Of a DNA stretch of 64,000 nt, positions 51,423 through 58,269 are shown one piece after another. This DNA is from Actinomycetes bacterium (GTDB lineage: Bacteria > Planctomycetota > Phycisphaerae > JAACET01), in assembly GCA_030614915.1 (NCBI GenBank), contig JAUXAG010000006.1, forward strand, positions 66,642-130,641. The letters are read 5' to 3'. Below the pieces are notes generated by a model. That model did not search any database, had not been told where the DNA came from, and saw nothing but the letters and a program-made list of their open reading frames with translations. Both the position numbers and the translations under genes were made by a program. Positions within the stretch are counted from its first letter, which is position 1, and each line of letters opens with the position of its first letter.

Positions 51423-51494
51423 GCGGGCGTAATTCAGTGGTAGAATGCCAGCTTCCCAAGCTGGACGTCGGCGGTTCGAATCCGCTCGCCCGCT
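51423..51494 (+). tRNA. tRNA-Gly (anticodon CCC)
   Basis: I folded it by hand. Acceptor GCGGGCG/CGCCCGC, D-arm TAATTCAGTGGTAGAAT, anticodon stem CCAGC/GCTGG with loop TTCCCAA, T-arm GGCGGTTCGAATCCGCT. CCA is not encoded. Confidence 0.85.
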
Positions 51495-51510
51495 TTTCGT
51501 AATAGCTTTT

Positions 51511-51538
51511 GGAGCCTAGGGTTACAACCCTAGGCTCC
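51511..51538 (+). terminator. Perfect 11-bp hairpin immediately 3' of tRNA-Gly; tandem TTTTGGGACAGTT x2 follows at 51563-51587
   Basis: ggagcctaggg ttacaa ccctaggctcc. Candidate tRNA terminator and/or att-site/arm-type integrase binding repeats. Confidence 0.45.
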
Positions 51539-51896
51539 TGGCCGTTTAGGCTTACCTCTGATTTTGGGACAGTTTTTGGGACAGTTCTACGCCGAAACTT
51601 ACCTGCGTGGTATTGACTTCACGCCAATCCAACACTAGCAGCAATCAGTTAAATCCCCCACAGACGTTATTGTCAGAGCAATGTCAATCCGCAAGCAGGT
51701 GAGTAGCATGCGCAATTAGAAACTGCCTCATTGGTAGGCATGTTCCCTCCCGATAGGCACTGTCGGCCTTTGATTATCGCTAAGCGGTGATTATCCAGGA
51801 GGCCGGGCCAGATCTCCACTGGGAAGATTGTAGTACATAGGGGTTTTTGCTGAGAGGCCTGGTCTTTCTATGGCTTGCAGCTCTTGTTCATCTGCT

Positions 51897-54931: not shown

Positions 54932-57060
54932 GCCTCTATTTTGTAGTTCTTCCTAAGGGCAAACTCCGCCTGCTTGCCTTTGTTCCATTGGCTTACAGGC
55001 CTCAGGTATCCGACCACGCGGGAGTAAACCTCGGTCTGGGCGTTACACTTGGGGCACTGAGGCTGCTGACCGGATATGTAGCCGTGCGCAGGACATACAG
55101 AGAACACCGGTGTTATGGTAAAATATGGAAGACGGTATTTGTGGCAAACCTCTCTGATAAAGGCTTTTACGGCCTGAGGGTCTGGCGTGGTCTCGCCGAG
55201 ATAGACATGTAATACCGTACCGCCGGTGTAGAGAGTCTGTAGCTCATCCTGGAGGTCTAAGACCTCAAAGATGTCGCCCGTATAGTTGACCGGTAATTGA
55301 GTGGAATTGGTATAGAAGGGCTCTCCTGTCTGATTGGCACAAATAATGTCGGGGTAGTGTTCCTTGTCCAGCTTGGCCAGCCGATAGCTGGTACTTTCTG
55401 CCGGGGTGGCTTCCAGGTTGTAGAAGTTGCCGGTCTGTTCTTGGAAGCGGATAAGAATTTGGCGCATAAAATCCAAGACTCTGATAGCAAAAGAGCGGCC
55501 TTGTGAGGTGCCGATATCGCAGCCTAGTAGGTTCAGGCCGGCTTCATTCATACCCACGAGGCCTATGGTGGAGAAGTGGTTGTACCAGTAACAGCCGTAA
55601 TGCTGTTTGATCTGTCGCAAATAGAATTTGGTATAGGGAAAGAGGTCCTGCTCGGTGAGCCGTTCGAGGACCTTGCGCTTCGTTTCCAGGCTTGTTCTGG
55701 CAATCTCCATCAACTGGTTGAGCCTCTGGAGAAAGTCGGCCTCATTAACGGCCAGATACCCCAGGCGGGGCATATTAATGGTTACTACACCGATCGAGCC
55801 GGTCAAGGGATTGGCCCCGAAAAGTCCACCCCCGCGTTTTCTTAGAGAACTCAGGTCCAAGCGGAGCCGACAGCACATCGAGCGGACATCGTCAGGAGAC
55901 ATGCCGGAATTGACAAAGTTGGCAAAATAAGGCAGGCCGTACTTGGCGGTGATTTCCCAGAGCTGTTCCAATTCTGGAGCATTCCAATCAAAATCTTCTG
56001 TGATGCTATAGGTGGGAATGGGGAAAGTGAAAGGACGACCCTTGGCGTCGCCCTCGGCTAAGACTTCCAGAAAAGCCCGATTAAAAAGATTCATCTCCGG
56101 CTGGAAGTCACCGTAAGTCTCCCTTTGTGGCTGGCCGCCTATGATGACCGCCTGGTCCGCCAGCGATTTGGGAGGCTGCAGATCCAGGCTAATATTGGCA
56201 AAGGGGGCCTGGCCTCCGACCCGGGTAGGCACGTTGCTATTGAAGATGAATTCCTGAAGAGCCTGTTTTATTTCTCTAAAGATCAGGCCGTCATAACGGA
56301 TAAATGGAGCGAGCAAGGTGTCAACATTAGAAAACGCCTGGGCTCCGGCCGCTTCGCCCTGGAGGGTGAAGATGAAGTTGACCATCTGACCCAGCACAGA
56401 GCGAAAATGCCTGGCCGGTCTGCTTTCAACTTTGCCTGGAGCACCCCGGAATCCCCACAAAAGCAGTCCGTACAGATACCATCCCACGCAATAGGGCGCA
56501 AGAAGCCCGAGGTCGTGAAGGTGTATTGCTCCAGACTCATATGCCTCGCGGACCTCCGGGCTGTAGATTTTCTCGAGCCAGTAATTCTTGCTGATGTCGC
56601 CGGATACGTAGTGGTTTAGTCCCGGCAGAGAGTAACCCATATTGCTGTTTTCACGCACCTTCCAATCACGGCGGTCCAGATAACTGTCTACCCGGTCAAG
56701 ATCAATCTTCTGGGCCATCTTTCTGATTCGCGTGTGCTGATCGCGATACCGGATGTAGGCCTTGCCGGTCTTTCTGAAAAGCGAGGCCAATAAAACGTCT
56801 TCCACCACATCCTGTATTTGTTCCACGGTAGGCGGTTTTTGTGGCAGAATTGTCTCGGCCTGGTTCAACACCTCAGTTGTGAGTGTTCGGGCAGTGTCTT
56901 GGCCAAACTCACCGGTGGCCTGGCCTGCCCGCAGTATGGCCGATTCGATTTTCCTGGCATCAAAAGGAACTAAGCGACCGTCACGTTTCTGAATTTGGTC
57001 AAATGGACAGTCGCCAAGATCGCCAAGGTCTCTTTGGGATTGTTCCGGCAAGCCTATCAT
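54928..57060 (-). CDS. nrdD: Anaerobic ribonucleoside-triphosphate reductase (class III)
   Basis: 710 aa. C-terminal zinc site CPAHGY...CPKCN and glycyl-radical motif RVVGYLRP. Confidence 0.85.
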   Translation of the reverse strand: MIGLPEQSQRDLGDLGDCPFDQIQKRDGRLVPFDARKIESAILRAGQATGEFGQDTARTLTTEVLNQAETILPQKPPTVEQIQDVVEDVLLASLFRKTGKAYIRYRDQHTRIRKMAQKIDLDRVDSYLDRRDWKVRENSNMGYSLPGLNHYVSGDISKNYWLEKIYSPEVREAYESGAIHLHDLGLLAPYCVGWYLYGLLLWGFRGAPGKVESRPARHFRSVLGQMVNFIFTLQGEAAGAQAFSNVDTLLAPFIRYDGLIFREIKQALQEFIFNSNVPTRVGGQAPFANISLDLQPPKSLADQAVIIGGQPQRETYGDFQPEMNLFNRAFLEVLAEGDAKGRPFTFPIPTYSITEDFDWNAPELEQLWEITAKYGLPYFANFVNSGMSPDDVRSMCCRLRLDLSSLRKRGGGLFGANPLTGSIGVVTINMPRLGYLAVNEADFLQRLNQLMEIARTSLETKRKVLERLTEQDLFPYTKFYLRQIKQHYGCYWYNHFSTIGLVGMNEAGLNLLGCDIGTSQGRSFAIRVLDFMRQILIRFQEQTGNFYNLEATPAESTSYRLAKLDKEHYPDIICANQTGEPFYTNSTQLPVNYTGDIFEVLDLQDELQTLYTGGTVLHVYLGETTPDPQAVKAFIREVCHKYRLPYFTITPVFSVCPAHGYISGQQPQCPKCNAQTEVYSRVVGYLRPVSQWNKGKQAEFALRKNYKIEA

Positions 57061-57307
57061 TCGAAAATATCCAATAATATCTACGCGCCGCGTGCAACCT
57101 TTTTGATACTGAGCATCTTCTGATCACACACGTCCATTAAATCAGAAATGTAATGAGCACGAATTCCCTCTACCTAACCAATCACTGATTTCTGCATTGC
57201 TCGATGATTTCAGGTTGTTGTGTGTGGTAATGACCGAACCATGTGCAAGCTCAGCCAGTGCGTGAGCTGAGCTTGCCCGAAAGAGGCAAACCAGGGAGGT
57301 AAAGAAA

Positions 57308-57451
57308 ATGCAAAGTTGTCCCTTGTGTGGTGTAATTAGGTACGGAAGTAAATACTTGGGCAAGTACTGTCCGCGATGTGGCAGGACGATTACGGACTTC
57401 CAAACAGATCTGGTCGATGACTTCCTTTCGGAAGACGACATACTGAGGTGA
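57308..57451 (+). CDS. Small zinc-ribbon protein (47 aa), overlaps the ArdC start; not in the ORF track
   Basis: MQSCPLCGVIRYGSKYLGKYCPRCGRTITDFQ... I translated it by hand. Its TGA overlaps the GTG start of the next gene. Confidence 0.35.
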   Translation: MQSCPLCGVIRYGSKYLGKYCPRCGRTITDFQTDLVDDFLSEDDILR

Positions 57452-58269
57452 TCAAAACGAACACAAATCAAACCAAGCAATTGGCCAAAGAGGCCACTGA
57501 TCAATTGATAGAGGCTGTTGAGGCCGGAAAGAGCGAAAAGCTCAAGGCCTATCTGGCTATGATGGGCAAGTTTCATCGTTATAGCTTTGGCAATGTCATG
57601 CTGATAGGAGCCCAGAAACCGAATGCGAGCAGAGTGGCGGGCTACCGAACCTGGAAAAAACTCGGCAGACAGGTCAAAAAGGGTGAAAAGGCTATCCGTA
57701 TTCTGGCCCCGATGGTTCGGCGGAACAAGCGTCAGCAAGAGGAGGGGGATGACCAGGAAGAAAATGTGACCTTTTTCAAGACCGTTTGCGTCTGGGACAC
57801 GACCCAAACGGATGGCAAACCACTGCCGGAATTCTCTGAGGTTGCAGGTGATCCGGGCAAGTACATTGACCGCTTGAAAGGCTACGTAGCCAGCCGGGGT
57901 ATCAAATTGGAGTACTCCAATTCTATCGGGCGTGCCGAAGGGCTTTCGGCCAAGGGCAGGATCATCCTCAGGAAAAACCTTTCTCCGGCTGAGGAATTTT
58001 CCGTATTGCTGCATGAGCTTTCTCATGAGACATTACACCAAGGCGAAGAACCGACAAAGAACAAGACTGTGCAGGAGACCGAGGCCGAGGCAGTTGCCTT
58101 TGTTGTCTGTCAAGCGGTGGGGCTGGATACCAATACCGCGTCCAGTGATTATGTGCAGCTCTACGACGGCAAGAAGGAAACGCTTATTTCTTCGCTTGAG
58201 CGGATCCAGCAGACAGCCGCCGACATCATTGACAACTTGATGCCTGAGCAGAAAAGATCTGCTGCCTGA
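57448..58269 (+). CDS. ardC: ArdC-like antirestriction protein (N-terminal ssDNA-binding domain + C-terminal HExxH metalloprotease-like domain)
   Basis: N-terminus YLAMMGKFHRYSFGNVMLI...GYRTWKKLGRQVKKGEKAI. C-terminal LLHELSHETLH. Confidence 0.7.
   Translation: MIKTNTNQTKQLAKEATDQLIEAVEAGKSEKLKAYLAMMGKFHRYSFGNVMLIGAQKPNASRVAGYRTWKKLGRQVKKGEKAIRILAPMVRRNKRQQEEGDDQEENVTFFKTVCVWDTTQTDGKPLPEFSEVAGDPGKYIDRLKGYVASRGIKLEYSNSIGRAEGLSAKGRIILRKNLSPAEEFSVLLHELSHETLHQGEEPTKNKTVQETEAEAVAFVVCQAVGLDTNTASSDYVQLYDGKKETLISSLERIQQTAADIIDNLMPEQKRSAA

Follow-up and report, generated by a model that had tools for sequence, protein, structure and literature searches.

We analysed a 64-kb stretch of DNA from an anaerobic Phycisphaerae/Sedimentisphaerales-like planctomycete; this stretch is called the window here, and all coordinates are window positions. 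Towards its right-hand end, a transfer RNA (tRNA) gene, tRNA-Gly(CCC), is followed by a hairpin, a short tandem repeat and the gene of a tyrosine integrase. Beyond these lie a gene for a small excisionase-like protein, an operon for a class III (anaerobic) ribonucleotide reductase (RNR) and a dCTP deaminase, a gene for an ArdC-like protein and a series of further genes that runs almost to the end of the window (Table 1). An earlier reading of the letters alone (the original prediction) had described this block as an integrative element targeted to the tRNA gene. tRNA genes were located with ARAGORN, domains and families were assigned using Pfam, NCBIfam, PHROG, PADLOC, Rfam and the PDB, and IMG/VR (2.9 million contigs) was used as the viral set.

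Table 1. Features of the tRNA-Gly(CCC) locus, in order of window position.
Feature	Position	Strand	Evidence and remarks
Truncated DDE_5 transposase (insertion sequence remnant)	50921-51361	-	Pfam DDE_5 30.9 bits, profile positions 15-96 of 272; 5' side of tRNA
tRNA-Gly(CCC), attachment-site gene (attL side)	51423-51494	+	ARAGORN; Rfam RF00005 68.1 bits
Hairpin	51511-51538	+	Inverted arms 51511-51523 and 51526-51538, 13 nt, 100% complementary; 16 nt 3' of tRNA
Tandem repeat, two exact copies of TTTTGGGACAGT, period 12	51562-51585	+	Proposed arm-type sites
Tyrosine integrase, 365 aa	51897-52994	-	Pfam Phage_integrase PF00589 2.6e-13, Phage_int_SAM_5 PF13102 3.3e-7; PHROG integrase 3.3e-44
HTH_17 excisionase-like protein	53227-53505	-	Pfam HTH_17 1.3e-8; PHROG 'excisionase and transcriptional regulator' 8.6e-4
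dcd, dCTP deaminase	53716-54339	-	Pfam DCD 1.5e-34; TIGR02274 150.4 bits (cut-off 92.8); last gene of operon
nrdG, radical-SAM activase of class III RNR	54296-54931	-	TIGR02495 204.6 bits (cut-off 131); Radical_SAM, Fer4_12
nrdD, class III (anaerobic) ribonucleoside-triphosphate reductase	54928-57060	-	Pfam NRDD 1.2e-190, ATP-cone 1.2e-19
47-aa Cys-rich open reading frame, putative gene	57308-57451	+	CPLC...CPRC, possible zinc ribbon; good Shine-Dalgarno; GTGA stop/start overlap with ardC
ArdC-like protein	57448-58269	+	ArdcN 6.2e-18 (65.6 bits, cut-off 22.6); Peptidase_M78 3.2e-5 (24.2, cut-off 22); PHROG anti-restriction 5.1e-21
89-aa protein	58347-58616	-	Homologues (32-55% identity) upstream of HTH_17 and integrase; far edge of cargo slot
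ThiF/E1-like adenylyltransferase	59036-59932	-	Pfam ThiF 1e-19; weak PADLOC E1-E2 matches, best 1.7e-8
Tubulin_2-like protein, about 925-948 aa	59929-62775	-	Pfam Tubulin_2 29.1 bits
vWA and FHA protein	62702-63985	-	Pfam VWA 23.8 bits, FHA 21.8 bits; stop overlaps start of tubulin-like gene

The tRNA gene and the integrase module

Two methods agreed on the predicted tRNA-Gly(CCC) gene, which was the sole tRNA gene detected by ARAGORN in the window and is preceded by a sigma-70-like promoter match (TTGATA-17-TAAAAT at 51346-51374). Its sequence is identical (72/72) to that of the tRNA adjoining a related integrase in another locus (L161; loci are designated by L numbers), and Rfam returned no further match in the window. 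The hairpin that follows forms a stem of 12 bp closed by a loop of 4 nt, and the 68-nt stretch has a folding energy of -30 kcal/mol (z = -3.9, with 0 of 200 shuffles as good). A perfect hairpin was therefore correctly foreseen, with a stem of 12 bp (13-nt arms) instead of the 11 bp originally claimed. It was not called by a terminator scan because no T-run follows it. Different hairpin sequences occupy the same position after the tRNA in L161 and L163; this recurrence of position with differing sequence fits DNA brought in by an element, and the hairpin probably represents an element-supplied 3' end or terminator structure for the tRNA.

The integrase gene is convergent with the tRNA gene, its stop codon lying 403 nt from the tRNA 3' end. 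The true product is a protein of 365 aa (100% identical to P0001) and not that of the longest open reading frame (ORF), which would have 404 aa. The match to PF00589 reached 50.5 bits (cut-off 27.1), and residues R210, K235, R301, H323 and Y332 were present in the window integrase and invariant in 28 homologues. The spacing of R301, H323 and Y332 is the same as that of R311, H333 and Y342, which we take to be the corresponding residues of lambda Int. The NCBIfam models for XerA, XerC and XerD matched the integrase only with scores far below cut-off. Pfam, PHROG and the catalytic residues thus agree on a tyrosine integrase, as proposed.

The HTH_17 gene lies directly upstream of the integrase gene and in the same direction, and homologues with 55-85% identity occupy this position in about 35 related loci. 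On the strength of this arrangement and its domain, the HTH_17 protein is a probable excisionase or recombination directionality factor. It had been called AlpA-like; both proteins are of the MerR-like winged-helix class, although the AlpA family itself gave no match.

A search for relatives of the integrase gave 200 homologues at E <= 1e-10, and 86 loci were read (6 by exact look-up and 80 from metagenomes). The family was essentially confined to Planctomycetota-type metagenome contigs, with one convincing relative, of 35% identity, in IMG/VR. Wherever a tRNA is in view, every relative of at least 57% identity (57-68%) adjoins tRNA-Gly(CCC). Those at 48-57% lie mostly beside tRNA-Val(GAC/TAC), tRNA-Pro(TGG/GGG) or tRNA-Ala, and those near 40% beside tRNA-Gly or tRNA-Arg. 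Integrase clades therefore track the target tRNA, as expected of site-specific elements, and the targeting of tRNA-Gly(CCC) that had been predicted for the window is shared by all close relatives with a tRNA in view.

The tandem repeat provided a further link between integrase and tRNA. The repeats start about 70 nt beyond the tRNA, and the sequence TTTGGGACAGT is present in exactly two copies in the 64 kb (51563-51573 and 51575-51585). Tandem repeats at this place were part of the original prediction; two exact copies are indeed found, with a period of 12 and not 13. An exact tandem repeat with a period of 12 (rarely 11) was found between the integrase end and the tRNA in 47 of the 54 related loci that have a tRNA no more than 700 nt from that end. 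The consensus in integrase orientation is AAACTGCCACAA, and the window carries the variant AAACTGTCCCAA. The motif co-varies with the integrase, being GGGACAG in the window, GGTACAG in L161 (a one-base variant, GTACC) and TGTGGCAG in most other loci. Such constancy of position and period, together with the co-variation of the motif, is as expected of arm-type protein-binding sites. The 12-nt repeats are probably sites of this kind, to judge from their arrangement, and are comparable to the arm sites P'1-P'3 of phage lambda. The motif was absent from IMG/VR, and across the window it gave 21 matches with up to 2 mismatches, which is not above the chance level of 15.7 expected from shuffles. One sequence, TTTTTGGGCAGGG at 58291-58303, just after ardC, resembles the arm motif; being a single imperfect copy, it was set aside as a chance match.

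The integrases of 57-68% identity were found to adjoin tRNA-Gly(CCC) in two opposite geometries. In the first (the window, L161, L163, L164 and L170), the integrase end faces the 3' end of the tRNA. In the second (L168, L169, L171-L176, L179, L200, L201, L238, L239 and L242), a repeat cluster comes after the integrase, then a promoter-like TTGCAT..TATAAT and, about 50 nt further along, another repeat cluster; a complete tRNA follows on the same strand, with its 5' end towards these clusters. Both geometries also exist at tRNA-Pro (L177 and L214 versus L178 and L185). This suggests that some members of the family may integrate upstream of the tRNA, supplying its 5' part and a promoter. The crossover was sought through mosaic tRNA halves, with conflicting results: L169 and L176 pointed to the anticodon loop, and L168, L173, L175 and L179 to whole-tRNA host types.

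In L161, whose integrase is the most similar among the relatives, the integrase stop is separated from the arm repeats by an inserted segment of 4.8 kb (3752-8500) with DUF2188, SIR2_2, DUF87 (HerA-like) and DUF3892 genes. The site of this insert, which corresponds in position to an unexplained 310 nt in the window (51586-51896), may be a second cargo position.

A cargo slot with genes for anaerobic deoxynucleotide synthesis

The limits of the cargo are set by two genes that recur with the integrase. Apart from the HTH_17 gene, these include the gene of the 89-aa protein, homologues of which lie 0.2-2.3 kb upstream of HTH_17 and integrase in L161, L163, L168, L169, L175 and L176, and directly adjacent to HTH_17 in the last three of these loci. 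Across ten loci, the 89-aa family joins the integrase/HTH_17 module, primase-polymerase (prim-pol) genes and nrdD-nrdG-dcd operons. Residues P9, G16, A20, W23, S38, I41, T54, L62, P63 and A72 are invariant in its alignment (A3). The protein had no match in Pfam, PHROG, NCBIfam or the PDB. A single-sequence AF2 model was weak (pLDDT 64) and showed four to five strands and a C-terminal helix; a Foldseek search with this model gave a best E value of 0.3, and its matches to SSB, PriB and Pur-alpha were not significant.

In the window, 4.8 kb with ardC and nrdD-nrdG-dcd separates the 89-aa gene from the HTH_17 gene. Since both of these genes travel with the integrase elsewhere, the nrd, dcd and ardC genes are internal cargo, and their placement inside the element, as first proposed, is supported by backbone genes on both sides. 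The slot beside HTH_17 is variable. It holds a class II RNR in L177, L180 and L189 (Pfam Ribonuc_red_lgC, 8e-124), an SPL-like radical-SAM gene in L161, L163, L168, L193 and L197, and an unknown gene pair in L178, L186 and L196, and it is empty in L169, L175 and L176. The GC content, which is 0.58-0.59 (0.583-0.587) in the flanking core genes, was 0.49 for integrase and HTH_17, 0.51 for nrd/dcd and ardC, and 0.55 (0.548) from 58347 to the end of the window.

The genes nrdD, nrdG and dcd are intact and nearly spacer-free, with the nrdD stop abutting the nrdG start, and all three products scored above NCBIfam equivalog cut-offs, in agreement with the dcd-nrdG-nrdD assignment of the original prediction. 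NrdD scored 1052 bits with NF006126 (cut-off 548) and 541 with TIGR02487 (cut-off 326), and contains an N-terminal ATP-cone and a C-terminal RVVGYL glycyl-radical motif with a Cys/His cluster. The true start of dcd is likely to be at 54282, which gives a protein of 188 aa as in relatives. No PADLOC model matched Dcd, so that no defence-type call was made; PHROG matches exist for NrdD, NrdG and Dcd.

The nearest non-self homologues of NrdD were at most 72% identical (70-72%). No NrdD above 72% was present in the protein collection, though relatives of the MutS protein encoded in the window exist there at 76-85%, which fits a gene that is absent from close relatives. A scan of GTDB genomes with NrdD yielded only nrdD-nrdG pairs at 61-68% identity, and among the loci returned there was no dcd, integrase or ArdC gene nearby and no close relative. 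Importantly, the three nearest readable nrdD contigs (L253, L254 and L281) carry the same nrdD-nrdG-dcd operon, with NrdD 70-72% and Dcd 80-84% identical to the window proteins. In L253, an AEP-TOTE primase gene lies immediately upstream of the operon. In L254, from Planctomycetota, the operon is followed by a prim-pol gene, a homologue of the 89-aa gene, HTH_17, a different integrase and tRNA-Lys, and in L281, from Sedimentisphaerales, by a homologue of the 89-aa gene, XPB/Bax1 and RecQ. All four nrdD-nrdG-dcd operons examined thus adjoin element-type genes. None of the 86 integrase loci carries nrdD, and the phage Dcd homologues in IMG/VR were at most 66% identical and had no adjacent nrdDG. 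Judged by these gene neighbourhoods, modules for the synthesis of deoxynucleoside triphosphates (dNTPs) are repeatedly linked to this mobile-element gene set in these bacteria.

The ardC gene is divergent from nrdD, and no other gene of the block shares its strand. Its product is colinear with the solved ArdC of R388 (PDB 6i89/6sna, E = 7e-6) over residues 14-262, and unites in one chain an N-terminal ArdcN domain, predicted to bind single-stranded DNA, and a C-terminal HExxH metalloprotease domain (HELSH) of predicted activity. The ArdC-like antirestriction gene is therefore a full-length homologue with both domains, as had been anticipated. ArdC-like genes were common in viral contigs (83 matches in IMG/VR), and only one other integrase locus, L230, has such a gene; ardC is therefore cargo rather than part of the backbone. 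ArdC is typical of conjugative plasmids, and its presence hints at transfer as single-stranded DNA.

A 47-aa zinc-ribbon ORF had been described as coupled to ardC. The ORF and its GTGA overlap are present, but a functional link to ardC is unsupported and the upstream ORF is not conserved: the zinc-ribbon matches in Pfam were all sub-threshold, PHROG gave no match, and in the seven viral loci inspected, the ArdC homologues have no comparable ORF in front of them.

Distal backbone genes and the gene content of relatives

Beyond the 89-aa gene, the vWA-FHA, tubulin-like and E1-like genes form an apparent operon (59036-63985) that looks like an NTPase-centred conflict or partition system. The tubulin-like protein had no sequence match in NCBIfam, PHROG or the PDB. 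Genes for homologues of it are found upstream of the 89-aa gene or HTH_17 in L175, L178 and L197. Since the partners of the tubulin-like gene run to 63985, the element reaches to or past the end of the window.

We also scanned 51 element-side proteins from 16 related loci, in which only about 10-12 kb of each element was in view. These included AEP primases, Cdc6/Orc-type proteins, tubulin-like proteins (Tubulin_2 in 2 of the 51), KAP and other NTPases, Hsp70/GrpE, a kinase, TPR and vWA proteins and a resolvase. Genes of the replication type (AEP prim-pol or Cdc6/Orc) were found in the relatives L163, L168, L253 and L254. There was no capsid, portal, terminase or tail protein among the 51. Relaxase, coupling protein and type IV secretion genes were absent from this set as well, and from 51.5-64 kb of the window. 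The original prediction had regarded the nucleotide-metabolism genes as typical auxiliary cargo of a phage or of an integrative conjugative element (ICE). This was not borne out, since the integrase family is nearly absent from IMG/VR and no phage structural or conjugation genes were seen in its relatives.

Position of the proposed island in the host chromosome

To the left of the region lie the core genes argC, argJ and mutS. The MutS homologues that carry source names come from Sedimentisphaerales, Phycisphaerae and Planctomycetota (55-57% identity), and a few metagenome relatives reach 76-85%. Among the relative contigs available, the nearest is L250, with a MutS of 85% identity; it runs colinearly with the window from 38981 to 50831 at about 79% nucleotide identity, and this colinearity ends just before the transposase fragment and the tRNA. 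None of the island to the right of 50831 was present in the next 4 kb of L250. Two further relatives, L251 and L252, are represented by contigs that stop inside mutS. Synteny of the whole block across related species, as would be seen in a core genome, was therefore not observed, and the break at 50831 indicates that the block is not conserved core. A comparison with an empty tRNA-Gly site had been suggested; L250 does lack the island, but it also lacks the tRNA.

A direct repeat of the tRNA 3' end, proposed as the mark of the far end, was not detected up to 64000, and the far end of the element probably lies beyond. That it would fall outside the window had been part of the prediction, and this is consistent with the absence of a copy of the tRNA 3' end from the window and with homologues of recurrent backbone genes running to 62775.

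From these comparisons, we consider it likely that the segment from 51495 to at least 63985 is one end (the attL side) of a tyrosine-integrase genomic island in the host chromosome, a reading that is supported by comparison and not by an attachment-site (att) repeat. The element is best described as integrative, cargo-carrying and non-viral, and as probably self-replicating. Nearly all features named in the original prediction lie where it placed them, and its interpretation holds for the most part, on evidence other than that which it had proposed.

In L217 (11117-12263), 14 nt of the tRNA-Gly 3' end (TCCCTTCGCCCGCT) recur at a distance of 1.06 kb downstream of the tRNA, and this may reflect an att pair that belongs to another insertion, of very small size, at the far side of that tRNA.

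Variable islets to the left of the tRNA gene

The transposase fragment expected on the other side of the tRNA is present, and small variable islets occur within the span that is colinear with L250, namely an islet with an OLD/AriA-like ATPase and a DUF975 gene found in the window only. What speaks for the proposed integration hotspot is one insertion sequence (IS) fragment together with the islets further left. The ATPase islet (42821-44914, minus strand) lies directly after mutS, has a GC content of 47-50% and encodes a 697-aa AAA_15 ATPase, with best PADLOC matches to AriA (PARIS; 5.9e-29) and Old/GajA; its counterpart in L250 is a DUF6680 gene. It is a small variable defence islet within otherwise syntenic DNA.

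The block just left of the tRNA (47874-50599; 8670-11424 in L250) shows about 80% nucleotide identity between the two contigs, and since it is conserved in L250, it is older than the island. It encodes a LexA/CI-like repressor of 332 aa (HTH_3 and Peptidase_S24), a 129-aa ORF and a 419-aa protein without a family match, and looks like a prophage-repressor-type or SOS-linked module from its predicted products. Further to the left (31450-34803, plus strand), a gene with a GC content of 46-50% encodes a protein of 1117 aa that has an MFS-like membrane region, a spermine/spermidine-synthase-like methyltransferase domain and many TPR repeats.

Alternative explanations

Several findings weigh against an integrative island at tRNA-Gly(CCC). 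Neither the tRNA 3' end (allowing up to 3 mismatches) nor 12-mers shared with the tRNA region recurred downstream in the window, so that no attR was identified there; the window has no second cluster of the 12-nt motif, and no attR was seen within 10 kb in any relative. Because of this, the boundaries and the present-day mobility of the element are unproven. L250 does not provide a clean empty site, as it has unrelated genes past the break and no tRNA-Gly at the corresponding place, and the adjacent IS remnant could partly account for the break in synteny. The integrase stop is separated from the repeats by 310 nt, and in L163, L164 and L170 the repeats overlap the 3' end of the integrase gene. 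The window contains no gene for replication of the element. Homologues of NrdD in many phyla, Sedimentisphaerales included, share about 70% identity with it; this flat similarity says little about origin and is no proof of a foreign source. There is no other RNR within the 64-kb window, and the island might carry the only RNR of the host.

Some of these findings can be accommodated by a decayed and immobile island, in which an old integration has become fixed and nrdD-nrdG-dcd is now the host's own, perhaps only, anaerobic RNR operon. The lack of an attR in 12.5 kb of window and in the flanks of relatives, the IS remnant beside the tRNA, the extra 310 nt that set the window apart from L163, L164 and L170, and an intact, tightly packed nrd operon with no second RNR in the window all favour this explanation, as do L164-L166, where nothing but the integrase and two small ORFs seems to be left next to genes of ordinary metabolism. 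However, the integrase, the HTH_17 gene, both repeats and the hairpin are intact, the catalytic residues are conserved, and the low GC content has not been ameliorated. The missing attR is no evidence of decay, since the far end is out of view. We regard decay as unlikely.

The presence of ArdC raised the question of an integrative conjugative or mobilizable element whose transfer genes lie past the window, with ArdC marking entry as a single strand. In its favour are the full-length colinearity with the ArdC of plasmid R388, the HExxH motif and the usual association of ArdC with conjugative plasmids. Yet no gene for a relaxase, a coupling protein or type IV secretion was seen in the window or among the 51 proteins of the 16 related loci, ArdC-like genes are also frequent in viral contigs, and the occurrence of ArdC in only one other integrase locus marks it as cargo. 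This makes a conjugative element improbable.

We rejected the possibility that the element is viral (a prophage or provirus belonging to a virus type not yet recognised), with the RNR and dcd genes as viral auxiliary genes for nucleotide metabolism, and consider it highly improbable. RNR and dCTP deaminase are classic phage genes, with PHROG matches for all three proteins, the primases of relatives match phage primase PHROGs, and many element-side proteins are without known function. On the other hand, 2.9 million IMG/VR contigs contained no close relative of the integrase (the one convincing match being that at 35% identity) and no arm repeat motif, the phage Dcd homologues there are distant (at most 66% identical) and not adjacent to nrdDG, and no capsid, portal, terminase or tail family was represented among the 51 element-side proteins.

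It is hardly conceivable that the region is ordinary core chromosome with a stray integrase placed by chance next to nrdDG and a tRNA. The nrd and dcd genes are of the housekeeping type with equivalog-level scores, and NrdD is 70% identical to that of other Sedimentisphaerales, not lower than would be expected from MutS (57%). Against this stand the family-wide association of integrase, tRNA and repeats, the backbone genes on both sides of the nrd block, the drop in GC content, the break in synteny with L250, and the element-like contexts in which the nearest nrd operons are also found.

Proposed mechanism

Based on the genomic island reading, the integrase would recombine a partial tRNA copy borne by the element with the chromosomal tRNA-Gly(CCC) gene, regenerating the gene, and the hairpin that follows would be element DNA. 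The 12-nt repeats would act as arm-type sites that position the integrase, and the HTH_17 protein would set the direction of recombination. The backbone would comprise the integrase, the HTH_17 protein, the 89-aa protein and the tubulin-like/vWA/E1-like operon, to which relatives add AEP prim-pol or Cdc6/Orc genes. The variable slot between the 89-aa gene and HTH_17 is filled here by nrdD-nrdG-dcd and the divergent ardC.

With regard to the cargo, NrdG is predicted to activate the glycyl-radical enzyme NrdD, which would reduce nucleoside triphosphates (NTPs) anaerobically under the control of its ATP-cone. Dcd would convert dCTP to dUTP on the way to dTTP, so that the operon could provide an oxygen-independent route from NTPs to the four dNTPs. 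Class III RNRs work on triphosphates, and a triphosphate deaminase is therefore a logical partner. The dNTP supply probably serves replication of the element, as in phages, and/or growth of the host under anoxia, and ArdC would protect or process element DNA upon entry into a new cell.

Comparison with known systems

The kind of element is well known, being a tRNA-targeting tyrosine-integrase island. As in P4/CP4-57-like islands and ICEclc, which is found at tRNA-Gly, a recombinase with a SAM-like and a catalytic domain lies at a tRNA 3' end, a small gene of the winged-helix excisionase type lies just upstream, tandem repeats occupy the integrase-proximal arm, and the cargo is low in GC. The window differs in its distinct integrase family, which occurs essentially in Planctomycetota-type metagenome contigs, in the lack of a defined attR or att core and in the occurrence of relatives in both orientations relative to the tRNA.

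Actinomycete integrative and conjugative elements (AICEs) such as pSAM2 are integrative replicative elements with a compact xis-int pair at a tRNA gene and a replication protein of the prim-pol type. The likeness to the window would lie in the xis-int arrangement at a tRNA and in the prim-pol genes of L163, L168 and L254. In contrast to AICEs, no FtsK-like transfer protein was identified here, and the host belongs to another phylum.

Among described concepts, the nearest that we found would be the tycheposon, by analogy. Tycheposons of Prochlorococcus and other marine bacteria have tRNA-specific tyrosine recombinases that cluster by target tRNA and a primase/helicase module with variable cargo or defence genes, and they build islands beside tRNA genes with remnants and tandem insertions (bioRxiv 10.1101/2020.12.28.424599). 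The family of the window shows the same pattern of recombinase, replication genes and cargo. The hosts differ (anaerobic sediment planctomycetes instead of marine bacteria), as does the cargo, which here consists of dNTP synthesis and conflict-type systems and not of nutrient acquisition, and a replication gene was seen in relatives only and not in the window.

Phage class III RNR modules (T4 nrdD/nrdG) and phage dCTP deaminases are likewise cases of mobile DNA that brings its own NrdD, NrdG and Dcd-family enzyme for the supply of dNTPs, and in L253 and L254 the nrd operon adjoins the primase gene of the element. Unlike in phages, no virion genes were found, phage Dcd proteins are at most 66% identical and not encoded beside nrdDG, and NrdD is of the long ATP-cone type (PRK08270) that is typical of cellular genomes. 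ArdC of the IncW plasmid R388/pSa (PDB 6I89, 6SNA) shares the ArdcN and HExxH layout in a nearly full-length alignment, but the relationship is distant (E = 7e-6). The window gene lies in a chromosomal island with no conjugation genes in view, and is preceded by the overlapping 47-aa Cys-rich ORF, which is absent upstream of the other homologues examined.

Significance

The element family of the window is apparently undescribed and repeatedly carries dNTP-synthesis genes. Its signature of integrase, HTH_17, 12-nt tandem repeat and 89-aa gene helps to annotate the poorly described mobile elements of Planctomycetota and Phycisphaerae, and the related integrases found at either end of the same tRNA gene constitute a natural system for the study of how integration orientation is set.

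More tentatively, the window may represent a family of replicative elements, so far undescribed, that target tRNA genes in anaerobic Planctomycetota. Such a family would be defined by the integrase/HTH_17 pair, 12-nt arm repeats, the 89-aa protein, prim-pol or Orc-like genes and the tubulin-like operon, and would habitually carry RNR (class III with Dcd, or class II). It is conceivable, though doubtful at present, that the anaerobic dNTP supply of these bacteria is largely or wholly element-borne and horizontally exchanged, and that members integrate on either side of the tRNA, some of them supplying its 5' part and promoter. Ribonucleotide reduction, an essential function, here occupies the cargo slot of a mobile element, and RNR genes were present in 4 of about 15 informative integrase loci. 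This raises the question of whether oxygen-independent synthesis of DNA precursors spreads horizontally among sediment anaerobes.

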